From: an uncultured Clostridia bacterium | Lineage (GTDB): Bacteria; Bacillota; Clostridia; RGIG7378 | Direction of reading: 5' to 3' | DNA: 49,754 nt | NCBI GenBank assembly: GCA_964500525.1 | Contig: CAZCOE010000066.1 | Span: 1 to 49,754 of the forward strand | Part shown: positions 5,295-49,754 of the stretch, in pieces | How the letters are laid out: the number at the start of each line of letters is the position of its first letter | Numbering within the stretch: position 1 is the first letter of the stretch | The notes under the pieces: model-generated | Told to the model about the DNA's origin: nothing | The model's database searches: none | What the model saw: the letters and a program-made list of their open reading frames with translations, nothing else | Program-made: the position numbers and the translations under genes

Positions 5295-6227
5295 CTATTC
5301 TTCTATCAGGGTGTATGCCCTTACATAATCTACCAGGAATGCGTCCGGCAGTGCATCTGCATCAGGCAAACCGGTCCAGCTGCCTGTCTCCACGGTTACC
5401 TTCATATAGAGGGGAACCTGGCAAATGCCTCCTGGAATATCCTTCTCCGACAATCTCCATACAGGCTTGCCATCGATGTAGAATACATACTTGTTGGGTG
5501 TCCACAACAGGCCGAACTTGTGGTAGCCGGAGTATATCCCCTCCACATGTGTATCGGTGGCCTGGCTGTGGAGACTATGTCCTCCCCGCCCGCTGTCATC
5601 GTCATAGTGAATGGCATGGCCCACCACGTCCCTGTTGTAGTATGGGGACTCCAATATATCTATCTCTGTGCCGTCCTCTGCGGAGCCGTCTGCATTGGCC
5701 ACACCGTCACAATAGAGCCAGAATGCGCACCAATAGCCGGGGATCTGGTTGAGCTGACAGCATATTTCAAAATAGCCATACTTCTGGGTGTAGGTGTTGA
5801 TGGTTCTGATAGCGCCGGACTTGTATACCCCGTCCTCACATACCATGGACAATTTAAGCTTGCCATCCTCCACCTTTACCTGATGCCAATCCCAGCGGTT
5901 GCCCAGGTCCTGTCTCTCCCAGGAAGGACAGTAGTTCCACAGTCCAAAATCCAGTTCATCTCCCTCAAACTCATCCTCGAAGGCCAGCTTGCATTTATAG
6001 CCGCCTACTTTGATTACGTCCTCCGGATCCGGGGTAGCAGTTGCATCCGGGGCAGCAGTTGTCTCCGGTGTGGCGGTTGCCTCCGGAGTGGCTGACGCAT
6101 CCGGAGTGACCTCAGGTGATGGCGCTGCTGTGGTGTCACCCTGGGGATCCCTGCATGCGGAGGCAAACAGGGCCATGGTCACCAGCAAAACAGCAAGCAG
6201 AATCATTTTTAAGTGTCTTGTATTCAT
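5295..6227 (-). CDS. GH16-family beta-glucanase-like lipoprotein
   Basis: 310 aa. Signal peptide with lipobox LFASAC, a Pro/Thr/Ala-rich linker, and the catalytic-type motif EIDILE (ExDxxE). Confidence 0.75.
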   Translation of the reverse strand: MNTRHLKMILLAVLLVTMALFASACRDPQGDTTAAPSPEVTPDASATPEATATPETTAAPDATATPDPEDVIKVGGYKCKLAFEDEFEGDELDFGLWNYCPSWERQDLGNRWDWHQVKVEDGKLKLSMVCEDGVYKSGAIRTINTYTQKYGYFEICCQLNQIPGYWCAFWLYCDGVANADGSAEDGTEIDILESPYYNRDVVGHAIHYDDDSGRGGHSLHSQATDTHVEGIYSGYHKFGLLWTPNKYVFYIDGKPVWRLSEKDIPGGICQVPLYMKVTVETGSWTGLPDADALPDAFLVDYVRAYTLIEE

Positions 6228-12032: not shown

Positions 12033-13721
12033 TTAGTCTGCAGCACCGGTGGTAACGTCCACTGTATCAGTGGTGACGTCCTCTGTGTCCGTAGTCACCT
12101 CCACACCCCCTGTAGTTTCCTCAGGAGGTCTGACGCCAACAGGGATATCCTTCATGTAGCCCTCCCGATAGTAGCTCAGAATAAGGTCCACAGCCATGCC
12201 ATATTTAGTGCCTGTCTGGTTGGCCCCGATGTGTCCGGCCTCTCCGCCGCCTTCCTGGACCTCAAACCAGTTAAACTGTCCGGAGGCTGCAATATCCCTG
12301 TTCATTGCATCGGAAAATGTGCTGCGGATGTTGAGCCAGGATGCATAGTCCATATCGTGAAGCTGGTCCATGCATTCGGACAGTCCCAACATTAGCCCGG
12401 AGTAGTTGTAATATGGGTCAGCATGGTTGACCGCCGATAGAAATGCCAGGAAGCTGCAGGCCTCGGAGTCTGCAAATCCCATCTGTTCTCCCAGATAGAA
12501 GCAGACTGTAGCAGGCATTTGATAGTCTGAGACACTGTTGTTAATCAACACCTCTCCGGTAAAAGGCTGATAGCAGCCGTCCCTGTCCAAACGATTGAGC
12601 AGCCAGGAAAACCCGGTGAACTTGGCCACCGACATTTTTAACTTCATATCACCCACAGCCAGTTCCTGCTGGAAGGATAGATTGCCAAAATACCTGATTC
12701 CCCGATTGATGCCATCTGCAGCATTGTTCAGATATGCGTTTCTGTCCGGGAGCTTCACTGTGCCATCCTGTGTCTCCCCCAGATATTCCCGAACCTCAGA
12801 GGCCCGGTACACCAGATTCTCACAGGCAGAGGTGAGCTCGTCGGCGGTGGCCTGTCTGGTGGGCAGGTTCATAACCTGATCCAGAGGCTTGCGGTATACG
12901 TTGATTCCAAAGAACAGCTGATAGATAAAGAACATAACTGCCAGGAATACGCACATGCCTGATGAAAAGCCTATAGCTGCATACCACTTGCGATATCCAT
13001 GGCGCTCAGCAGCTATGCGGTATATGGTATACCCAAGAGCCACCAGGATAATGGCCACAAGGATCCATGTGAGCACATCGGAGACAGCCATTGCAAAAAT
13101 AGAGCTGAATACATTGAGGACCATGCGGATAACATAGCCCAGTCCGTCGGAGTACAGAGACTCCACCTGATTGGTATAGCCGGATACCTTGGCCATTATG
13201 AATAGGGTCAGAGGGTAGATCAGGCAGATGAATGTGCGGTTGATTACCTTCTTCCAGCGGATGCGCTTCCAGAACAGCTTCCACTCCCGGGCAAAGCGGG
13301 GTTTGAACCTTTCCCATGCGGCCTTGGTCCTGCCGGGAAGTTCCTTAAAGAAAACCTTGGTCCTGCCGGGGAGACCCTTAAAGAAAGCTCTGGTCCTACC
13401 GGGAAGCTCCCTGAAAAATGTACCTGTCCGGGAAGGAAGGGTGGCAAAGAACCTGCCCACTCTCTTAAAGAATGGGAGCTTCTCCTCCGGAGGCTGTTTC
13501 TCAGCATCGGAAGCGGCCTGGGGCGCAACAGGTTTTATGGGACGAGTGTTGCGGACTGCGTTCTCCGGTGTCTGAGCCTGAGTCTCGGCGACGCTCGCCT
13601 CCGGGGCCGGACCCTGGGAGGGCGCAACATCAGCAGCATGCTCCTGCTGACTCTGTTTGCGGGCCTTGGAGCTGCTCTCGATCAAATCCAATAAATTGTA
13701 GTCTGTATTTCTGTCCTTCAT
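12033..13721 (-). CDS. DUF3810-like membrane protein with a long N-terminal extension and degenerate zincin motif
   Basis: 562 aa. The central-to-C-terminal part (YQPFTGEVLINN...PATVCFYLGEQMGFADSEACSFLAFLS...YSG) resembles my recollection of DUF3810. The N-terminus is low-complexity and holds 11-aa tandem repeats. The start overlaps the nrdR stop (ATGA). Confidence 0.55.
   Translation of the reverse strand: MKDRNTDYNLLDLIESSSKARKQSQQEHAADVAPSQGPAPEASVAETQAQTPENAVRNTRPIKPVAPQAASDAEKQPPEEKLPFFKRVGRFFATLPSRTGTFFRELPGRTRAFFKGLPGRTKVFFKELPGRTKAAWERFKPRFAREWKLFWKRIRWKKVINRTFICLIYPLTLFIMAKVSGYTNQVESLYSDGLGYVIRMVLNVFSSIFAMAVSDVLTWILVAIILVALGYTIYRIAAERHGYRKWYAAIGFSSGMCVFLAVMFFIYQLFFGINVYRKPLDQVMNLPTRQATADELTSACENLVYRASEVREYLGETQDGTVKLPDRNAYLNNAADGINRGIRYFGNLSFQQELAVGDMKLKMSVAKFTGFSWLLNRLDRDGCYQPFTGEVLINNSVSDYQMPATVCFYLGEQMGFADSEACSFLAFLSAVNHADPYYNYSGLMLGLSECMDQLHDMDYASWLNIRSTFSDAMNRDIAASGQFNWFEVQEGGGEAGHIGANQTGTKYGMAVDLILSYYREGYMKDIPVGVRPPEETTGGVEVTTDTEDVTTDTVDVTTGAAD
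13322..13453 (-). repeat. four tandem 33-bp repeats inside the CDS, encoding FF(K/R)xLPGRT(K/R)x units
   Basis: Plus strand: ccttggtcctgccgggaagttccttaaagaaaa / ccttggtcctgccggggagacccttaaagaaag / ctctggtcctaccgggaagctccctgaaaaatg / a decayed fourth unit. Protein: FFATLPSRTGT FFRELPGRTRA FFKGLPGRTKV FFKELPGRTKA. Confidence 0.85.
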
Positions 13722-26858: not shown

Positions 26859-28364
26859 CTACCTGTTGGTAGCCTCTTTGTCCTTGAGAGTAACGTCATG
26901 ATAGCCACCCTCCACAATTGATGTGGCGGATACCAGTGTGAGCTTGGCGTTCTTCTGCAAATCAGGAATATTCAGCACACCGCAGTTGCACATTGTGGAG
27001 CGAACCTTGGACATGGACTTGCCCAGGTTGTCGTGGAGGCTGCCTGCGTAGGGAACATAGGAATCTACGCCCTCCTCAAAGCTGAGCTTCTTGTCGCCGC
27101 CCAGGTCGTATCTCTGCCAGTTGCGGGCACGGTTGCTGCCCTCGCCCCAGTACTCCTTAACGTATGTGCCGTTGACCATAAGCTTAGCTGTGGGGCTCTC
27201 GTCAAATCTGGCGAAATATCTGCCCATCATGATAAAGTCGGCGCCCATGGCCAGGGCCAATGTCATATGGTAGTCATGTACGATACCGCCGTCGGAACAG
27301 ATTGGTACGTAGATGCCTGTCTTCTCAAAATATTCATCTCTGGCAGCCGCAACCTCGATAAGTGCGGAGGCCTGGCCACGGCCAATGCCCTTCTGCTCAC
27401 GGGTAATGCATATGGAGCCGCCGCCGATACCTACCTTAACAAAGTCAGCGCCGCAGGCTACCAGGTATTCAAAACCCTCCTTGTCTACTACGTTGCCTGC
27501 GCCAACCTTAACTGTATTTCCATAGTGCTGGCGAATCCAGTCGATGGTGATTTTCTGCCACTCGGTGAATCCCTCAGAGGAGTCAATGCACAGCACGTCC
27601 ACACCGGCGTCAACCAGTGCGGGTACCCGTTCTGCATAATCTCTGGTGTTGATTCCTGCGCCTACCATGTAGCGCTTGCTGGAATCCAGCAGCTCGTAGG
27701 GGTTATCCTTGTGGTCAGAGTAGTCCTTGCGGAATACCAGGGACACCAGATTTCCCTCCGGGCTCACAATGGGCAGAGAGTTAAGCTTATGGTCCCAGAT
27801 AATGTCGTTAGCTTCCTTTAATGTAGTGCCCTCGGGAGCTGTAACCAGCTTGTCCATGGGGGTCATGAACTCAGAAACCTTCAGGTCCCTTGGCATACGG
27901 CTGACTCTATAATCCCTGCTGGTTACGATTCCGCAGAGTCTGCCATTGGGCTGTCCATCCTCTGTAACTGCTATTGTGGAGTGGCCTGTGCGCTCTGTAA
28001 CTGCCAGAACATCTGCCAGGGTGTCGTCGGGCCTTACGTTGGAATCGCTGCGGACAAAGCCTGCCTTGTAGGATTTGACTCTGGCAACCATGGCTGCCTC
28101 GTTCTCGATTGTCTGGGCTCCGTAGATAAAGGAGATTCCGCCTTCCTTTGCCAGGGCAATGGCCATTTTGTCGTCGGAGACGGACTGCATAATGGCTGAA
28201 ACCACAGGTGTGTTCAGATAAATATCCGACTCCTCACCGGTCTTAAACTTGACCAAAGGCGTCCTGAGTGACACGTTTGCAGGAATGCATTCCTTAGATG
28301 AATAACCGGGAATCAGCAGATATTCGCTGAAGGTACGAGAAGGCTCGCTGAAATAATATGCCAT
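26859..28364 (-). CDS. guaB: IMP dehydrogenase
   Basis: Preferred start is ATG 28364 ([21 protein letters not shown]...) with AGGAG upstream. Catalytic loop [12 protein letters not shown]; CBS pair in the middle. The ORF track starts at 28433. Confidence 0.92.
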
Positions 28365-28459
28365 GGTATAATCTCCTATCTTGAAATGCCCGCAGGCTAT
28401 AATATATAAACTAAATTGCCCCTCATTATACAAATAGTAAAAGCCAGAGTCAAGGGAAG

Positions 28460-29060
28460 ACGGGGCGAAGCGGGGCTTCGCTGCGCTTCGCCAGTGAATA
28501 GTGATTAGTGATGAGTGATGAGTGATGAGTGAATAACTCTGGTCCCCATGCTCCCATGCTCGACTATATCAGTGATGAGTGATGAGTTCTGGTGGATTTG
28601 TTCCTTTGGTCAAATTGATTACTGGAACGCGGCGTCAGAAGTTGAAACTTGTCAAGTTTTTTGGACCGACCGAAGAGTGAAAACGATATAACCGCCCATG
28701 GGAGCATAGCTACCGCTTCGGGTTCTTAGGGCATCGCTTCATCTTTCGACCTCTGGAACATAGGGACCAGAACTCTTCACACATCACTCTACACTTTTCA
28801 CTGGGAGGCTTTGCCTCGCCCGTGCTCCGCTTAGTTATTCGAGCAATGGAACGTGGGGACCAGAACTATTCACCATTCACTAATCACTATGCACTGGGTA
28901 CCAAGGGCATGGGAGCATGGCGTCCTCAACTCTTCACACATCACTCTACACTCTTCACTGCGAAGCATCTATGCTTCGCCGGGAGCGGCGCCTTTTCCCG
29001 GTACTTTTGGGCGGTCAAAAGTACCGACGACTCTTCACTCTTCACCCTTCACTTGTTGGC
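28460..29060. repeat. cluster of six copies of a modular intergenic repeat (two plus-orientation, four minus-orientation) with accessory hairpins
   Basis: Unit = CC-(AGTGAnn)x3-6-AGTTCTGGTCCCCATGCTCCCATGCTCGA. Copies: 28491-28563 (+), 28570-28613 (+, decayed), 28746-28804 (-), 28839-28897 (-), 28907-28960 (-), 29026-29060 (-, heptads only). Flanking hairpins: GCGAAGC/GCTTCGC (28465-28481, 28960-28979) and a perfect 10-bp stem at 29000-29025. Confidence 0.9.
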
Positions 29061-29074
29061 TGCTGCCGTCCCAG

Positions 29075-29935
29075 TCAAATCTCTGCCAGGATCCTATCCA
29101 GTACAGCCTGAATATCGGCCTTGTCAGCTGCATCTCCCAGTACGCGCAATTCGTAAAACACATTATCCTCCACCCAATAGGCAGTAGGGTCATAAAAGTC
29201 GCCTTGGTAGTAGCCATTGTTGTTGGACCCATTGGTGGTAACAATCAATACGGAGGTGCCGGATTTTGTAGTTGCTGTGGCCTGTTCGTAGGTGGCATAC
29301 CCATTATAAACGCAGCCCGTGGTATATGTTCCGGCTTTTGCAGCAAGAGTCGCCGTCAGAGTAATCCTTGCATTATCGGTACTGTATCCGGCTGTGGCAC
29401 TTATTTCCCTGGGTTTTCTCTCTTCATTTGCAGCGTTGACTGTGACCTGAATGTGCTTTATAGGCCTATCCGGATCAGCGCTCTCCATTCCAATATGTCC
29501 GGTTTTGTTGAGCCAGCTGAGGGACTCCAGAGGATTATTCACAGTAACGCCTATTCCCTCCTCACATTCGTCCCAGGTGTCGGATTCGAAATATACGATT
29601 CCCCAAATACGACTTGACAGGGTTCTCTCTTCCCAGGTCATACTGTCATATTTGTTCCATTCCTGGGTGAGTATTTCAGTAGGCGTTTGGCCCAAATGGG
29701 ATAGGTCCGTGCCCACCAGTTCTGTTCCCACTCGATAGGAGGATTCCTTATTGTCCGTTTTTTTCTCTATTACTTCCACACGGGAATTGGTCAATTGGCC
29801 ATCGGGAGTCCCGGTTAGATCGGATGTCTTATCCTCTGCACACCCGGCGAAAATCAACGCAAGCACCAGGCAAAGGGCCAATGCGGCTATTGTTCTGATA
29901 GTAGGTTGGGTAGATACTGGGGTCTTTGTCTTCAT
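29075..29935 (-). CDS. putative lipoprotein of unknown function
   Basis: 286 aa. Signal peptide ending in the lipobox IFAGC. No catalytic motif recognised. Confidence 0.7.
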   Translation of the reverse strand: MKTKTPVSTQPTIRTIAALALCLVLALIFAGCAEDKTSDLTGTPDGQLTNSRVEVIEKKTDNKESSYRVGTELVGTDLSHLGQTPTEILTQEWNKYDSMTWEERTLSSRIWGIVYFESDTWDECEEGIGVTVNNPLESLSWLNKTGHIGMESADPDRPIKHIQVTVNAANEERKPREISATAGYSTDNARITLTATLAAKAGTYTTGCVYNGYATYEQATATTKSGTSVLIVTTNGSNNNGYYQGDFYDPTAYWVEDNVFYELRVLGDAADKADIQAVLDRILAEI

Positions 29936-30157
29936 GGTATTACTCCTTTCCGGCGAGACTCAATCAATTCTGCTTTAGCCATTTGTCTCGCGGCTCGCTG
30001 CCTTGATTCCACAATCTATTCGTATTATTGCCTACTTCGCCTCAAATGGCAATATGCCTTCAAGATACGCACGCAAACTTTTCAAAAAGCGTGTCAAACA
30101 CGACTATTACAAGCTGTATGCCTACGCTTGAGTGGTACCTGGCAATAGCCTTCTTTC

Positions 30158-30250
30158 TTCCGATTTTGGAATCAATACCTTGAATTTTAAATTTTTTTCC
30201 GAATTCGGAATTTTTATAGTTATTTTGTGTATCATATGCTATAATCGGAA
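30158..30250 (+). promoter_or_regulatory. promoter region of the ATPase gene with TTCCGA/TCGGAA palindromes
   Basis: TTCCGATTTTGGAA (30158-30171), a perfect palindrome TTCCGAATTCGGAA (30197-30210), and a TCGGAA half-site (30245-30250) overlapping an extended -10 TGcTATAAT (30237-30245). Confidence 0.45.
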
Positions 30251-30274
30251 TACTATTTGATGGAGGTAATCACC

Positions 30275-31495
30275 TTGGTTGAGAGAAAAGAATACCTAGA
30301 TTGTTTGATTCAATGGAAGGATGAGCAGGTCATCAAAGTGGTCACCGGTATCAGGCGGTGCGGTAAATCAACCCTGCTTCTTCAATATCAGGCGTGGCTT
30401 AAGGCAAACGGCATCTCAGATGAGCAGATCGTTTCCATTAATTTTGAAGAGCTGGAATATGAGGAGCTGCAGGACTATCGCAAGCTGTATGCCTACATCA
30501 GGGATCATCTGTGCCAGGGGACAAAGAACTACATTTTCCTGGATGAGATTCAGAAGGTTCCATCCTTTGAGAAGGTGGTAGACAGTCTGTATGTCAAGCC
30601 GGATATGGACATCTATATCACCGGTTCCAATGCCTATATGCTTTCCGGAGATCTTGCGACACTATTGACCGGGCGCTATGTGGAAATAAAAATGCTGCCC
30701 CTGTCCTTCAAGGAATTTCTGAAAATCACCGGTATGGACCCGGATCGGGGTCTTCCGGAATATATGCATGACGGAGGACTTCCATATATTGCCAAAATGG
30801 ATCGAACCCCGGAAAAGGTGGAAACCTACTTAGAGGGTATCTACAATACCGTTATCGTAAAGGACATGGTGGATCGTCAGGCCAGAAAGGAAACCAATTC
30901 GGATAAAAGAAGAATTACGGATATCCTCCTGCTGAAGACCATAGCTAAATACCTAGCCAGTGTGGTGGGAAATCCGGTCTCCATCAAATCAATTGCCGAC
31001 TATCTGACCTCAAACGGAAGAAAAGTCTCGCCTAACACGGTGAGCGATTATGTGGAGGCTCTCACAGAATCATTTATCTTCTATTCTGCAGAGCGTTTTG
31101 ACATTGTGGGTAAGCAGCTCTTGAAATCGAACCGAAAGCTGTATATTGTAGACCTTGGCTTACGAAACCATATCCTGCCCCGCAGTCAATACGATTTGGG
31201 ATTTTCCCTGGAGAACATTGTCTATTTTGAGCTTCTTCGCCGAGGCTATCGTGTTATGATTGGAAAGGTCGGCAATACGGAAGTAGACTTCGTTGCTGAA
31301 AAGCAGGGAATCCATACCTATTTCCAGGTTACAGCTGATATGACTGCGAAGGACACCTTCCACCGGGAGATGAAGCCACTGACAAGAATCCGGGACAACT
31401 ACGAAAAAATCGTTTTGACCGCAGATCGACTCACTGCAGGAGACTACAACGGCATCCGGGTCAAAAACATATCCGACTGGTTGCTGGGGGAATAA
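30275..31495 (+). CDS. AAA-family ATPase with a DUF4143-type C-terminal domain
   Basis: Walker A GIRRCGKSTLL, Walker B IFLDEIQ, and a C-terminal nuclease-fold-like region typical of AAA_14/DUF4143 proteins. Preferred start is TTG 30275 (MVERKEYLDCL) with GGAGG 8 nt upstream. The ORF track starts at 30257 and there is an ATG at 30260. Confidence 0.8.
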   Translation: MVERKEYLDCLIQWKDEQVIKVVTGIRRCGKSTLLLQYQAWLKANGISDEQIVSINFEELEYEELQDYRKLYAYIRDHLCQGTKNYIFLDEIQKVPSFEKVVDSLYVKPDMDIYITGSNAYMLSGDLATLLTGRYVEIKMLPLSFKEFLKITGMDPDRGLPEYMHDGGLPYIAKMDRTPEKVETYLEGIYNTVIVKDMVDRQARKETNSDKRRITDILLLKTIAKYLASVVGNPVSIKSIADYLTSNGRKVSPNTVSDYVEALTESFIFYSAERFDIVGKQLLKSNRKLYIVDLGLRNHILPRSQYDLGFSLENIVYFELLRRGYRVMIGKVGNTEVDFVAEKQGIHTYFQVTADMTAKDTFHREMKPLTRIRDNYEKIVLTADRLTAGDYNGIRVKNISDWLLGE

Positions 31496-31504
31496 AATCA
31501 CATC

Positions 31505-31535
31505 CCCAGCGTTATACATTCAAAACAACAGCGCC
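31505..31535. repeat. left copy of a 31-bp direct repeat (duplicate of the thuA-like 3' end)
   Basis: CCCAGCgTTATACATTCAAAACAACAGCGCC. It matches 33143-33173 at 30 of 31 positions. Confidence 0.9.
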
Positions 31536-31552
31536 ATTGCGAATCCGAGCCT

Positions 31553-31620
31553 CCCAGTGAAAAGTGAAAAGTTCTGGACCCTACGCTCCCATGGTCGATC
31601 ATAGGAACGTGGCAACCACT
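31553..31620. repeat. one full (+) unit and one truncated (-) unit of the modular repeat, joined head-to-head at TCGA
   Basis: CCCAGTGAAAAGTGAAAAGTTCTGGACCCTACGCTCCCATGGTCGA is followed by TCATAGGAACGTGG, which resembles the start of the minus-orientation unit at 28839. Confidence 0.75.
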
Positions 31621-31734
31621 CAGCACTTACTTCAGTACTTTCAGCACTTATTGTACTGAAAACATCTTGACAATTTCGCTCTTTAATTTTTGAATATAGT
31701 AACTTATTTGGAGGATACTCGTATCCTTAGAATG

Positions 31735-31775
31735 CCCCGTCAAGTGTTGGTAGCACTTGGCGGGGTTTATTCTTT
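31735..31775 (+). terminator. strong plus-strand rho-independent terminator
   Basis: CCCCGTCAAGTG (31735-31746) pairs with CACTTGGCGGGG (31754-31765): 12 bp including one G-U pair, with a 7-nt loop. It is followed by TTTATTCTTT. There is no U-tract in the minus orientation. Confidence 0.7.
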
Positions 31776-31790
31776 GCTCTGAAATTTGCT

Positions 31791-32303
31791 TCAATCTTCT
31801 TGAATATAGGTGAACTGTACATTTCGATCTGCCGCAGATACTGCAACTACTGTTCTTTCATCTGGTGAGAGAAGATAGAGGATATCTTCATGCATTTTTA
31901 TATAATCAAAAAGCAGCAATTGAGGAAATTTCTCTAAGAAGGTGTCTGTTTCGACTTCCTCAAAGACAAAGATTCGTGTCCACCCTTCGAATGATACATT
32001 CGATAACTGACACTCTGTTCGTTGATACACCCTTAACCAATGACCACCAATACGCATTTGAGTTTCATATACTCTGTGACACTCTGTGCAATACCAATAC
32101 TCGACAGGTTCTGAGCGTTTCATGAATTTCTTTTGTAATCCTTTCAATTCATCCCAATCAGTCAGGAAGTCTGACAGCAGAATCTGAGGATTATCTGCAA
32201 GAGCAGAAAATATTTCCTGTTCATAGTAAATACATAAACTGTATGGTGATGGGCTGACTGATGTCCCCATTGTAGCACCACATTTACATAACATTCTCGA
32301 CAT
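31791..32303 (-). CDS. hypothetical protein with two Cys pairs (possible zinc ribbon)
   Basis: 170 aa. CKCG at residues 6-9 and CTEC at 73-76. Strong RBS AAAGGAGG 8 nt upstream. Low-GC gene; no family recognised. Confidence 0.6.
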   Translation of the reverse strand: MSRMLCKCGATMGTSVSPSPYSLCIYYEQEIFSALADNPQILLSDFLTDWDELKGLQKKFMKRSEPVEYWYCTECHRVYETQMRIGGHWLRVYQRTECQLSNVSFEGWTRIFVFEEVETDTFLEKFPQLLLFDYIKMHEDILYLLSPDERTVVAVSAADRNVQFTYIQED

Positions 32304-32317
32304 AGTGAAACCTCCTT

Positions 32318-32536
32318 TTAGTATTCAATCTTGGTTTTATTTGAAAACCATACCTCGATTGGCCCCTTAATCCAACCCTTTCGTCTCGCCTCTGCGATTC
32401 CTTCTTCAGCAAATGCCCTTCCACTTTCACTGTTCCTATGATTTGGTAAAAATATCGCAATCGTATCGCCATACCTGGTAAACAGGTCGATTACTTCTTC
32501 TTTGATAAATTCGTAAGTGCTGTCATCTAGTCTCAT
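32318..32536 (-). CDS. hypothetical small protein (72 aa)
   Basis: It lies 8 nt after the XRE gene and 14 nt before the 170-aa gene. No family recognised. Confidence 0.5.
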   Translation of the reverse strand: MRLDDSTYEFIKEEVIDLFTRYGDTIAIFLPNHRNSESGRAFAEEGIAEARRKGWIKGPIEVWFSNKTKIEY

Positions 32537-32544
32537 TAATTCGC

Positions 32545-32868
32545 TTATTCCTCTCCAAGGAGAATACCCATGATTTCCATCTTCTCCTCTTTTGTCATCT
32601 GCCTTACATTTCGGGCAATCAGCCTTTTTGCATGTGCAACCTCGTTTTTTGTGTCTGGCTCTGTACCGTTCATCAAAAAATCTGAAGTTGTACCTAGTGC
32701 ATCTGCAATTCTAGCCATCACACTTGCTCTTGGAATGCGATCTCCCTTAATATAATGAGATACTGCTGCCTCTGTCACCCCAGCCCTTTGTGCGAGCGTT
32801 TGTTGTTGCATGCCTTTTTTCTTCAAAAAATCGAAAGCTGTTCTCCAAATGTTACTGCCATTGTTCAT
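32545..32868 (-). CDS. XRE-family helix-turn-helix regulator
   Basis: 107 aa. KKKGMQQQTLAQRAGVTEAAVSHYIKGDRIPRASVMARIADALGTTSDFL is an HTH_3 pattern. AAGGAGG RBS. Confidence 0.85.
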   Translation of the reverse strand: MNNGSNIWRTAFDFLKKKGMQQQTLAQRAGVTEAAVSHYIKGDRIPRASVMARIADALGTTSDFLMNGTEPDTKNEVAHAKRLIARNVRQMTKEEKMEIMGILLGEE

Positions 32869-33142
32869 TCCTCCTTTAGAATAGTTGCTCTACATCCTGT
32901 TTGATGTTATAACTGTTTTTATCGTTTTATCAACCGGTGTTGTAAAGATTAATTGCAACAATGTCAAGTTTTCGTGTGAATACTAACCAATTCGATAAAA
33001 GAATACTATATCCTAGCTTTAATTATCTTTGGAGGCTAAAATTAGATATATCGATGGACGTCTTTGCCTTTGACTAATCTCTCCCTCCGCTGGGCAATTT
33101 AGATTTTCAGTTAAGGTGTTAGCTCAACAGTGTCATGTCCTT

Positions 33143-39169: not shown

Positions 39170-39233
39170 GGCGCATTCCTCCTTTGTTCTCTGGTTTTAA
39201 TATAAAATGAAAAGCTGTTCATTTCAAGTAGGG

Positions 39234-39345
39234 GCATCGCGAAGGGAAGCTTCGTGCGAAGCTTTGCGACCCAGTGAAGAGTGTAGAGTGATGAGTGAAG
39301 AGTTCTGGTCCCCTTGCTCCCATGCTCGATTATTCACTCTCACAA
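39234..39345. repeat. single (+) unit of the modular repeat, with upstream GCGAAGC-type hairpins, between the MFS and GH9 genes
   Basis: 39270-39329: CCCAGTGAAGAGTGTAGAGTGATGAGTGAAGAGTTCTGGTCCCCTTGCTCCCATGCTCGA. It is preceded by CGAAGggaaGCTTCG / GCGAAGCtttGCGA. Confidence 0.85.
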
Positions 39346-39359
39346 GGACGCGAATCTTC

Positions 39360-41504: not shown

Positions 41505-42485
41505 TTATTCCCACTCGATTGTTGCCACAGGCTTGGGTGTCAGGTCGTACAGCACCCGGTTGATGCCTTCCACCTCAGCGGTGATTCGTGCTGTAACCTT
41601 GTTCAGCAGCTGATAGGGCAGCTCCTCGATGGTGGCTGTCATTGCGTCTGTGGTGTTGATAGCCCGGATGATTGCCGGCCAACCCTCGTAGCGCTTGCCG
41701 TTCTTGACGCCTACGCTCTTCATGTCTGGCACTGCGATGAAGTACTGCCAAACCTTGCCTGCCAGGCCAAAGTTCTCAAACTCCTCACGCAGGATGGCGT
41801 CTGCCTCTCTCAATGCATGGAGACGATCTCTGGTAATAGCGCCCAGGCAGCGAACTCCCAGTCCGGGACCGGGGAAAGGCTGACGATACACCATGCTGTG
41901 GGGCAGTCCCAAGGCCTCGCCCACAACTCTTACCTCGTCCTTGAACAGCAGCTTGACGGGCTCAACCAGCTCAAACTTAATATTCTCAGGCAGTCCGCCC
42001 ACATTGTGGTGTGCCTTGACTCCGTCGGATTCCAAAATGTCGGGATAGATAGTGCCCTGGGCCAGGAATGAAATGCCCTCCAGCTTCTTGGCCTCCTCAT
42101 CGAATACCTTGATGAACTCGGCGCCGATGATCTTGCGCTTTTTCTCAGGCTCCTGTACTCCTGCCAACAGGTCCAGGAAACGGTCTGTAGCATCTACATA
42201 GATCAGGTTGGCGTCCATCTGCCTGCCAAATACCTCCAGAACCTGCTCGCTCTCTCCCTTGCGCATGAGGCCGTGGTTTACGTGTACACAGACCAGCTGC
42301 TTGCCTACTGCCTTAATCAACAGGGCAGCTACTACAGATGAGTCAACTCCGCCGGACAGTGCCAGCAGTACCTTCTTGTCGCCAATCTGAGCTCTCAGCT
42401 CAGCAATCTGCTGGTCGATAAATTCATTGGCCAACTGGGGTGTTGTGATGCGTGTCATAGATTCGGGTCGCTTGTTACCGTTCAT
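41505..42485 (-). CDS. guaA: GMP synthase, ATP-pyrophosphatase plus dimerisation domains only (no glutamine amidotransferase domain)
   Basis: 326 aa. LALSGGVDSSV (PP-loop), AQGTIYPD, HHNVGGLP, FPGPGLG, and the terminal PVATIEWE. GGAGGA RBS 7 nt before ATG 42485. Confidence 0.9.
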   Translation of the reverse strand: MNGNKRPESMTRITTPQLANEFIDQQIAELRAQIGDKKVLLALSGGVDSSVVAALLIKAVGKQLVCVHVNHGLMRKGESEQVLEVFGRQMDANLIYVDATDRFLDLLAGVQEPEKKRKIIGAEFIKVFDEEAKKLEGISFLAQGTIYPDILESDGVKAHHNVGGLPENIKFELVEPVKLLFKDEVRVVGEALGLPHSMVYRQPFPGPGLGVRCLGAITRDRLHALREADAILREEFENFGLAGKVWQYFIAVPDMKSVGVKNGKRYEGWPAIIRAINTTDAMTATIEELPYQLLNKVTARITAEVEGINRVLYDLTPKPVATIEWE

Positions 42486-49382: not shown

Positions 49383-49501
49383 AAATACCTCCAAGTAATA
49401 CCTGATACGAAGTGGTCGTCCTAGGAGTGATAATGCGAAAATGTACTCACATGCACATGGCATCATCGGGCGATAAACTGCGTATCGGCGAAATCTTGTG
49501 T

Positions 49502-49530
49502 ATTTTATCACAGTGGTTTTGCTAATTCAA
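49502..49530 (-). promoter_or_regulatory. candidate rpsO promoter
   Basis: Minus strand: TTGAAT (49530-49525), 17-nt spacer, TAAAAT (49507-49502). This implies a leader of about 110 nt. The -35 element overlaps the first repeat unit. Confidence 0.45.
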
Positions 49531-49754
49531 GTGAATAGTGAAAAGTGATGAGTGAAGAGTTGAGGACGCCATGCTCCCATGCTCGATTTGGAAGCGGGGC
49601 ACGGGCGAGGCAAAGCCTCCCAGTGAAAAGTCCCAAGTGATGAGTGAAAAGTTGTGGCCCCTATGTTCCAGAGGTCGAATGGCGAAGCGGTGCCCTAAGG
49701 ACCCGAAGCGGTGGTGTGCTCCTATGAAGGATTGTGTAGTTTCACTCTTCAGTC
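49528..49754. repeat. composite copy of the modular repeat (two (+) units plus a tail module), running off the window edge
   Basis: Units at 49528-49586 and 49619-49678. The spacer GGAAGCGGGGCACGGGCGAGGCAAAGCCTCC and the tail 49679-49754 are the reverse complement of 28668-28838 at high identity. Confidence 0.9.

Follow-up and report, generated by a model that had tools for sequence, protein, structure and literature searches.

The short tandemly repeated repetitive (STRR) sequences of cyanobacteria are tandem arrays of heptads, with CCCCAGT, TTGGTCA and CAACAGT as the units of STRR1-3. Elhai et al. are said to have described, in 2008, small dispersed repeats (SDR) of 21-27 nt from Nostoc, which reportedly lie embedded in heptameric arrays, in highly iterated palindromes (HIP1) or in miniature inverted-repeat transposable elements (MITEs), or are nested in one another, and SDR4-6 reportedly have a supported secondary structure. 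The BOX elements of Streptococcus pneumoniae hold a 45-nt tandem sub-module between conserved modules and have a stable fold. Here we describe a family of intergenic repeats, built of AGTGAnn heptads and a conserved core, in a stretch of 49,754 nucleotides from an uncultured Clostridia bacterium (contig CAZCOE010000066.1), referred to below as the window; the original prediction had drawn attention to these repeats upstream of the gene guaB.

Heptamers are over-represented among the simple repeats of bacteria and are mostly intergenic (PMC4692102). Intergenic heptanucleotide arrays, including convergent pairs, have been described in Xanthomonas and in Nostoc (GGGGAYT), and the GGGAATC arrays of Xanthomonas form 70-75 convergent inverted pairs per genome, at a mean distance of 28 nt from the open reading frame (ORF) on their 5' side (PMC4692102). 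Heptanucleotides of Calothrix PCC7601 and the polymerase-slippage hypothesis of Mrazek (2007) for 'long SSRs' (simple sequence repeats) are given here as they are cited in PMC4692102. Arrays of TAACTGA are known from Beggiatoaceae, Cyanobacteria and Bacteroidetes (PMC4679880). For SDR5, PMC4390886 reports precise insertion within HIP1, and for repetitive extragenic palindromes (REP) PMC3733652 describes a tag, the tetranucleotide GTAG or CGTC, at one end of the palindrome.

Anatomy of the repeat family

The copied module comprises about 57 nt, usually four AGTGAnn heptads followed in fixed phase by a core of 29-30 nt, and is often preceded by CC(C) and a short GC-rich hairpin. The core, with a consensus of roughly AGTTSTGGWCCCYAYGYTCCMWKGSTCGA, starts with AGT in the phase of the heptads, ends with TCGA and occurs in three variants that grade into one another (AGTTCTGGTCCCCATGCTCCCATGCTCGA, AGTTGAGGACGCCATGCTCCCATGCTCGA and AGTTCTGGTCCCTATGTTCCAGAGGTCGAA). 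The pattern AGTGANNAGTGANNAGTGA was matched 22 times in the window at up to two mismatches, against 0.09 matches expected from shuffles, and the program TRF placed arrays of period 7 at 28500-28532, 28571-28587, 28772-28802, 28865-28895, 29030-29053, 31556-31572, 39273-39303 and 49530-49560. Within six mismatches of the variant consensuses the core occurs eight times in the window and is absent from the ~320 other loci compared; at up to three mismatches the window holds two matches against 0.00 expected. A profile hidden Markov model (nhmmer), made from the window copies and then run on the window, returned eight full units with E values of 1e-15 to 1e-18, together with a degenerate unit (28569-28614, E 6e-5), two core fragments and a heptad-only array (29030-29052). 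All copies fall within four of the 25 intergenic gaps and none in coding sequence, where the original prediction had foreseen that a gene remnant might show, and, by a sum over gap and unit coordinates, they account for about one fifth of the intergenic sequence of the window. With eight units in the profile search and heptads far above chance, the modular intergenic repeat that had been proposed is genuine, and the mosaic family to which it belongs is real and lineage-specific. The features of the four repeat blocks are as follows, with the coordinates of the full-unit profile match in brackets.

28462-28492, plus strand: hairpin h1, GC-rich (GGCGAAGC..GCTTCGC..GCTTCGCC), a stable stem in the DNA fold of 28455-28570
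28493-28563, plus strand: unit A, six heptads at 28493-28534 (AGTGA followed by AT, TT, TG, TG, TG, AT) and core AACTCTGGTCCCCATGCTCCCATGCTCGA at 28535-28563; E 1.4e-17 (28514-28568)
28571-28614, plus strand: unit B, two heptads and a degenerate core (AGTTCTGGTGGATTTGTTCCTTTGGTCAAA); E 5.9e-5
28664-28805, minus strand: unit C with its tail, CCC, four heptads at 28775-28802 and core AGTTCTGGTCCCTATGTTCCAGAGGTCGAA at 28745-28774; E 2.1e-16 (28743-28795)
28806-28837, minus strand: linker between D and C with the small hairpin GGCGAGGCAAAGCCTCC, equal to the linker between units E and F (alignment A1)
28838-28898, minus strand: unit D, CCC, four heptads at 28868-28895 and core AGTTCTGGTCCCCACGTTCCATTGCTCGAA at 28838-28867; E 6.6e-16 (28834-28888)
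28903-28959, minus strand: unit G, four heptads at 28932-28959 and core variant AGTTGAGGACGCCATGCTCCCATGC at 28903-28931; E 4.6e-15 (28905-28952)
28960-28979, minus strand: hairpin h2, GCGAAGCAT-AG-ATGCTTCGC, abutting the 5' end of unit G as read on the minus strand
29000-29025, no strand assigned: perfect 10-bp stem GGTACTTTTG / CAAAAGTACC with a 6-nt loop and no T-run 3' of it on either strand
29033-29053, minus strand: array H, three heptads (AGTGAAG GGTGAAG AGTGAAG) and no canonical core; E 0.13 for the heptad part
31553-31657, plus strand: unit I, CCC, two heptads and core AGTTCTGGACCCTACGCTCCCATGGTCGA at 31570-31598; E 1.1e-15 (31554-31603)
39237-39346, plus strand: unit J, hairpin at 39237-39269, CCC, four heptads at 39273-39300 and core at 39301-39329; E 1e-18 (39280-39334)
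49530-49754, plus strand: composite E-F, starting at the rpsO -35 (49525-49530); E 2e-17 and 5.9e-16
49530-49618, plus strand: unit E, heptads at 49530-49557 and core at 49558-49586 (49537-49589), followed by a linker hairpin at 49587-49618
49622-49754, plus strand: unit F, heptads at 49622-49649, core at 49650-49679 and a tail to the window end (49629-49683)

The block upstream of guaB occupies 28462-29053 of a 710-nt gap (28365-29074) between guaB (26859-28364, minus strand; Pfam IMPDH and CBS) and the ORF upstream of it (29075-29935, minus strand), which has a signal peptide and an FAGC lipobox; these coordinates agree with the 710-bp spacer between lipoprotein gene and guaB proposed at the outset. 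The original prediction had counted six copies here, two in plus and four in minus orientation. Their orientations hold (A and B plus; C, D, G and H minus), and four are full units (A, C, D and G), whereas B is degenerate and H is coreless, a different hairpin standing where its core would be expected. The recurrences it had placed at 31553, 39270, 49528 and 49619 are real and intergenic, and the hairpins of GCGAAGC and GCTTCGC (28462-28492 and 28960-28979) and the perfect 10-bp stem (29000-29009 pairing with 29016-29025) are likewise present. What had to be revised is the view of a 60-nt unit as the largest module, as a larger composite exists.

This composite of ~235 nt, consisting of a unit, a linker hairpin, a second unit and a tail, recurs upstream of guaB and of rpsO. 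The reverse complement of 28664-28898 (D, linker, C and tail) aligns with 49528-49754 (E and F), the whole of alignment A1 having a mean column identity of 78%, and unit C with its tail (28664-28805) is homologous to 49619-49754. Units C, G and J, from two loci, arrange their heptad variants alike (x, TAG, ATG, AAG) and agree in phase at the heptad-core junction, and despite this common order they carry three different core variants. Unit G has heptads like those of C and J and a core like that of E, with which it has its core variant in common, and C and F have both core and tail in common. Short inverted heptads close units C, F, I and J; that of C is TTTTCACTCTTC, its tail also holding GAAGCG motifs and a CATGGGAGCATAGC fragment, and that of J is TTCACTCTCAC. 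At TCGA, unit I passes into an inverted core fragment (31591-31618, E 0.015) and a diverged inverted array. The guaB block is itself nested, A being 77% complementary to D and B pairing with C. Over all, the copies are ~70-90% alike, and both copying as a unit and mosaicism are evident from them.

It must be noted that short-read contigs break at these repeats, as an assembly artefact would lead one to expect: four independent ones end at 49557-49561, where array E meets its core, and one ends in the loop of the 10-bp hairpin. Contigs stop at the heptad/core junction because a multi-copy k-mer breaks short-read assembly. The blocks are, however, internal to the 49.7-kb contig, where they lie between unique housekeeping genes, and independent assemblies from five runs reproduced the junctions of unique DNA and repeat base for base. 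Array H is present in a further independent contig (L073), and the heptad counts of arrays E and H do not differ between the window and samples of the same organism; a look-up through the MFS protein found no contig crossing unit J. The artefact that the original prediction had itself raised is therefore not borne out by the independent short-read contigs. A decaying gene fragment is opposed by the period of seven, which cannot keep a reading frame, and by the intergenic position of all copies. Taken together, artefact and gene fragment are an extremely improbable source of the family, and these readings are largely excluded.

Relatives and public heptad arrays

The window is chromosomal DNA of 50.5% G+C, with housekeeping genes assigned by Pfam (rplM-rpsI, truA, gltX, nrdR, asd, mreBCD-PBP2, ECF transporter genes, guaB, pnp and rpsO). 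Among the best named relatives, the GuaB protein is ~80% identical to proteins of Oscillospiraceae, Christensenellales and other Clostridia, and the Pnp protein ~71% identical to those of Ruminiclostridium and Acetivibrio; only a few metagenomic relatives reach 90-95% protein identity. A cyanobacterial origin of the DNA was rejected, because the count of HIP1 sites is zero and the genes are Clostridia-like.

Three relatives (L321, L322 and L323; pnp identical to that of the window at 93% of amino acids and 82-88% of nucleotides) are colinear with the window across rpsO-pnp-M16-AsnC-aminotransferase-CDF-guaA. They align with it from the rpsO ATG through the leader and the extended -10 to the -35, and homology stops exactly there: past the -35 the window continues with heptads, whereas L321-L323 run into A/T-rich sequence and the end of a WYL-domain gene. 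In the 11-20 kb of these relatives neither units nor arrays of at least three heptads were found, so that the elements are absent from the orthologous site; upstream of the -35 this empty site is too diverged to define a target-site duplication. A relative with a closer guaB (L077; 95% of amino acids, 91% of nucleotides) has, at the same guaB site upstream of the conserved promoter and at a second intergenic site, diverged heptads (GTAAGAG type) together with inverted heptads and a segment resembling the core. Two more distant relatives, with guaB matching the window at 1055 bits (L074) and at 90% of amino acids and 1043 bits (L075), have no elements in ~20 kb. Since the blocks differ between L321-L323, L077, L074/L075 and the window, the family is, from these comparisons, confined to a narrow lineage and turns over quickly.

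The same relatives differ in base composition. G+C at third positions is 0.40 in pnp of L321 and L322, 0.56 in pnp of L323, 0.58 in guaB of L077 and 0.82 in guaB of L075, and it is 0.62-0.63 in pnp and guaB of the window; with values of 0.40-0.82 among relatives that are 81-91% identical in the nucleotides of guaB or pnp, base composition shifts unusually fast within this clade. The guaB of L074 (10001-11785) is called with 594 aa instead of 501 aa, probably from a start too far upstream, and that locus is free of heptad arrays.

Searches beyond the relatives returned heptads without the core. The pattern of the heptad-core junction AGTGANNAGTTCTGGNCCC, scanned against 185,579 species genomes, gave 66 matches, all of them single chance ones, mostly in apparent coding sequence and free of heptad arrays, so that the genomes scanned do not include that of the window. 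The block had no blastn match among plasmids and phages, and two core variants had a single match among viral contigs. That sole exact match, of the core 17-mer CATGCTCCCATGCTCGA at L324:2272-2288, lies in tRNA-like sequence on the opposite strand (GGGAGCATGGTCTAGTGG...), a likeness read by eye and not confirmed with ARAGORN; it is judged a chance match because the likeness to the core does not extend beyond ~11 nt and because the window has no tRNA according to ARAGORN, a scan of it for tRNA and tmRNA genes having found none.

Arrays of AGTGAnn themselves are common in public metagenomic and viral contigs: a survey of public data for three consecutive AGTGANN units returned at least 240 loci (L078-L317), many of them from IMG/VR. 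Among the matches listed, an AGTGAnn array is followed by an inverted nnTCACT array within 300 nt in 47 cases and the opposite order occurs once. These convergent pairs are mostly spaced by less than 35 nt, with loops ranging from 1 to >100 nt, and their arms are largely mirrored while the loops are lineage-specific. The core of the window is absent from the 240 AGTGAnn loci listed.

One may speculate that hairpins with AGTGAnn arms form a class of their own that crosses phyla, occurs also on phage-like contigs and has a dedicated mechanism, and that the family in the window is a derivative of it. Under this quite unlikely scenario, hairpin-templated expansion of repeats, a system for transposition of single-stranded DNA or a conserved binding protein would make or maintain the arrays, and the loop position would have acquired mobile cargo in the present lineage, namely the 29-nt core, the linker hairpins and the tail.

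Gene context, folding and spread

The blocks begin 17-58 nt past the upstream stop codon, which belongs to the lipoprotein gene for H (22 nt), to the AAA_14 gene for I (58 nt, between convergent genes) and to the MFS gene for J, and they end 0-10 nt from the predicted -35 of the next gene (guaB 28453, GH9 39227, rpsO 49530). Thus hairpin h1 is located 9 nt upstream of the guaB -35, directly before array A, and unit J sits between the MFS stop codon (39360) and the -35 of GH9 (39222-39227). The predicted guaB promoter (28425-28453, minus strand; TTGACT, 17-nt spacer, TATAAT) lies outside the repeat. All three units next to a promoter lie on the plus strand and turn their heptad end towards a minus-strand promoter; with respect to the upstream transcript the units have no common orientation, H, G, D, C and I being sense and J antisense.

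Such positions could reflect functional cis-elements kept by selection, be it as terminators, 3'-end stabilisers or insulators that serve the upstream gene, perhaps in both directions, or as DNA of an UP-element-like or protein-binding kind that serves the downstream promoter, and we regard this as an unlikely but serious alternative. It would account for the closeness to stop codons and -35 elements, for the constant facing of the heptad end, and for the replacement, just upstream of the rpsO -35, of the A/T-rich stretch of the relatives by heptads in the window; the stability of the GC-rich hairpins fits as well. A purine-rich 5' arm and a pyrimidine-rich 3' arm are the polarity typical of terminator stems, and the public arrays have it in a ratio of 47:1 among the matches listed. 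The Xanthomonas GGGAATC arrays, at an average of 28 nt from the 5' ORF and in 70-75 convergent pairs, likewise fit a function of this kind (PMC4692102). Against it, three of the four blocks (those of guaB, GH9/MFS and rpsO) have no terminator-like site, and the only such site, at 31734-31766 near unit I, lies outside the repeat. Single elements I and J and those of L077 have no significant fold, the orientation relative to upstream transcripts is mixed, and the relatives express the same genes without the elements. In the relatives the distance from the upstream stop codon to the rpsO ATG is only ~150 nt, and an insertion that is tolerated must therefore abut the rpsO -35; we read the adjacency to promoters as a consequence of this compact spacing and not of targeting.

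The promoter of rpsO (TTGAAT, 17-nt spacer, TG-extended TAAAAT) and a ~120-nt leader are kept in the window and its relatives, as compared between window 49383-49530 and L321:9354-9507, L322 and L323 (pnp 82-88% identical in nucleotides). This leader may be an autoregulatory structure for S15; no Rfam family was found in it at gathering score.

Folding separates the whole from its parts. As a single strand, the block of 636 nt folds at -264 kcal/mol (z = -14 against shuffles), a strong fold because the block holds inverted copies, whereas the folds of single units (z -2.4 to +0.6), and of single units and elements taken together (z -2.4 to +1.0), are no stronger than those of shuffles, and only the small GC-rich hairpins are individually stable. 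The potential for long hairpins or cruciforms that had been proposed is therefore a property of the block, and a single unit has no fold of its own. No T-run follows any hairpin of the blocks, for which reason canonical terminators were rejected.

Small structured RNAs, or RNA motifs that regulate in cis, would as a family also be intergenic, conserved and present in multiple copies, and stable small hairpins do adjoin the units. Rfam, however, had no match in the whole window at gathering score, in line with the check the original prediction had suggested, and at relaxed settings the guaB block had one chance match to a snoRNA (E 0.72; 16.6 bits, the gathering score being 75). RNAalifold found no consensus base pair among eight aligned units, the units fold like shuffles, they occur in both orientations relative to flanking genes, and no promoter or terminator is attached to them. 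On the empty Rfam result, the shuffle-like folds and the lack of consensus pairs, structured RNA was rejected; it is a very improbable reading and, like artefact and decayed gene, largely excluded.

We consider it somewhat probable that the repeats are a lineage-specific, non-autonomous family of mosaic elements of a known kind, most likely selfish or neutral DNA. How they spread, what slippage contributes and whether they lack a function we infer from the patterns described above. Whole modules would be copied between intergenic sites by a trans-acting or recombinational copy-paste process, and would exchange parts through recombination or gene conversion. A local inverted duplication could have produced the long imperfect palindrome upstream of guaB, and replication slippage would alter the number of heptads. 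Insertions would persist where they are harmless, in the short stretch from a stop codon to the next -35, and effects on expression, from hairpins reached by read-through or from the replacement of DNA upstream of a -35, would be side effects.

Several observations weigh against a mobile element without function. No target-site duplication was spotted by eye around I, J or E-F, and the copies, at ~70-90% likeness, show no trace of recent bursts. A mobilising enzyme cannot be named either, since Pfam on the 47 ORFs found no gene for a transposase, RAYT (REP-associated tyrosine transposase), TnpB or integrase in the 49.7 kb, as the original prediction had noted for transposase and RAYT genes. 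The difference at rpsO could be a loss in the relatives rather than a gain in the window, slippage is not directly seen given the equal heptad counts of E and H, and the heptad end facing the -35 in three of three cases could hint at function. Copy number, moreover, refers to the 49.7-kb window.

It may also be asked whether array and core have separate histories. In an arrangement resembling the nesting of SDR, heptad hairpins would be an older, generic substrate and the 29-nt core, with the other cargo, a mobile element inserting site-specifically and in fixed phase at the inner end of the array, which we find rather unlikely. In every case the core adjoins the last heptad in one and the same phase, with AGT at its start, and one type of array carries three core variants in C, G and J. 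The arms of public heptad hairpins are shared and their loop content is lineage-specific among the matches listed, the guaB block is nested (A with D, B with C), and SDR5 offers a precedent of precise insertion within HIP1 (PMC4390886). Opposed to this is the order of heptad variants common to several loci, which speaks for array and core travelling together; furthermore, no array of the window is an 'empty' generic hairpin, and cores without an adjacent heptad amount to two fragments only.

The heptamer GCGAAGC occurs at 28465, 28960, 39256 and 49682 and GCTTCGC at 28475, 28485 and 28973. Seven of the 12 occurrences of either sequence in the window sit within the repeat blocks, which take up ~2% of it. 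The oligonucleotide d(GCGAAGC) forms an exceptionally stable DNA mini-hairpin, and its enrichment might point to a single-stranded DNA intermediate.

Some features of the wider window touch the repeats only by neighbourhood. Homologues of the lipoprotein gene (L069-L072; 61-71% identity) are the last genes of Penicillinase_R / Peptidase_M56 (BlaR/MecR-like) operons, on DNA that also bears genes for relaxase, ParB, TnpV or serine recombinase; these loci are mobile-element contexts unrelated to the window, and the repeats are absent from them. In the window the lipoprotein gene is solitary, between the repeat block and an AAA_14/DUF4143 ATPase gene, and given these flanks the region 28365-33000, upstream of guaB, may represent an inserted variable island. 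The guaA-like ORF (41505-42485, minus strand, 326 aa) has only an ATP-pyrophosphatase (NAD_synthase-like) and a GMP_synt_C domain, as have those of L321 and L322, and the glutamine amidotransferase part of GMP synthase would therefore be encoded separately. Tandem repeats in coding sequence at 6027-6104, 12049-12104 and 13322-13410, in GH16 and DUF3810 genes, have periods of 18, 21 and 33 nt; these are multiples of three, and the repeats are therefore probably protein repeats unrelated to the heptad family.

The repeats explain why short-read assemblies break at housekeeping loci of this Clostridia lineage. The blocks can serve as markers at the level of strain and species, because they differ between relatives that share 93-95% protein identity. 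One more lineage-specific repeat family in an uncultured bacterium is not surprising, and polar heptad hairpins have partly been described already; the public-data survey adds the wide occurrence of AGTGAnn arrays whose hairpin polarity is fixed among the matches listed.

Comparison with described repeat classes

A CRISPR array consists of equally long direct repeats, all oriented alike, between unique spacers of similar length, and usually has cas genes. The mixed orientations of the units, their uneven distances (for instance 93, 64 and 100 nt) and the lack of cas domains led us to reject a CRISPR. MITEs are similarly small, intergenic and noncoding, their presence varies between relatives, and units C, F, I and J have inverted heptads at their two ends; the inverted repeats at these ends are, however, just 7-12 nt long and made of the heptad (TTTTCACTCTTC, TTCACTCTCAC), and there is no known parent insertion sequence. 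BOX resembles the family as a modular intergenic repeat with a variable count of a tandem sub-module, but this sub-module measures 45 nt against 7 nt in the window, the sequences are unrelated and the fold of BOX is stable.

The likeness to the REP sequences and bacterial interspersed mosaic elements (BIME) of enterobacteria and to the REPINs of Pseudomonas lies in architecture. Mosaic extragenic blocks, short modules in alternating orientation, defined linkers and a position between transcription units are common to both. In contrast to these classes, the unit in the window is not palindromic, where theirs is an imperfect palindrome of 20-40 nt, no GTAG or CGTC tag stands beside a hairpin, GTAG occurring in the units only inside the heptad variant AGTGTAG, and the window has no RAYT gene. 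With SDR the comparison is by description only: the 29-30-nt core of the window lies at the inner end of heptad arrays, and both are tiny dispersed repeats that encode no enzyme and whose mobility is judged from relatives. SDR4-6 are structured whereas the window core is without structure, and the phylum differs.

The resemblance to STRR and long SSRs extends to tandem 7-nt units with conserved and variable positions, which are dispersed and overwhelmingly intergenic, to arrays of 2-20 copies that often form convergent stem-loop pairs, and to a content that differs between close relatives. Taken strictly, the heptamers of STRR1-3 occur in the window as scattered single copies only. The family differs further in that its host is a member of the Clostridia without HIP1, in that its short arrays (2-6 units) and the fixed 29-nt core are parts of a single copied module, and in that the local hairpin potential of single elements is weak.

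The original prediction had held the repeat to be unassignable to a known class and previously unrecognised. It stands that no Rfam family, CRISPR, riboswitch or REP-type palindrome accounts for it, but it belongs to a known class of intergenic repeat, being STRR-, SDR-, BIME- or MITE-like in its several aspects. Specific to the lineage are only the 29-nt core and the way it is combined with the heptads, heptad arrays as such being already described (PMC4692102, PMC4679880). Heptad-based intergenic repeats, of which we found descriptions in Cyanobacteria, Xanthomonas, Beggiatoaceae and Bacteroidetes, are hereby extended to uncultured Clostridia.

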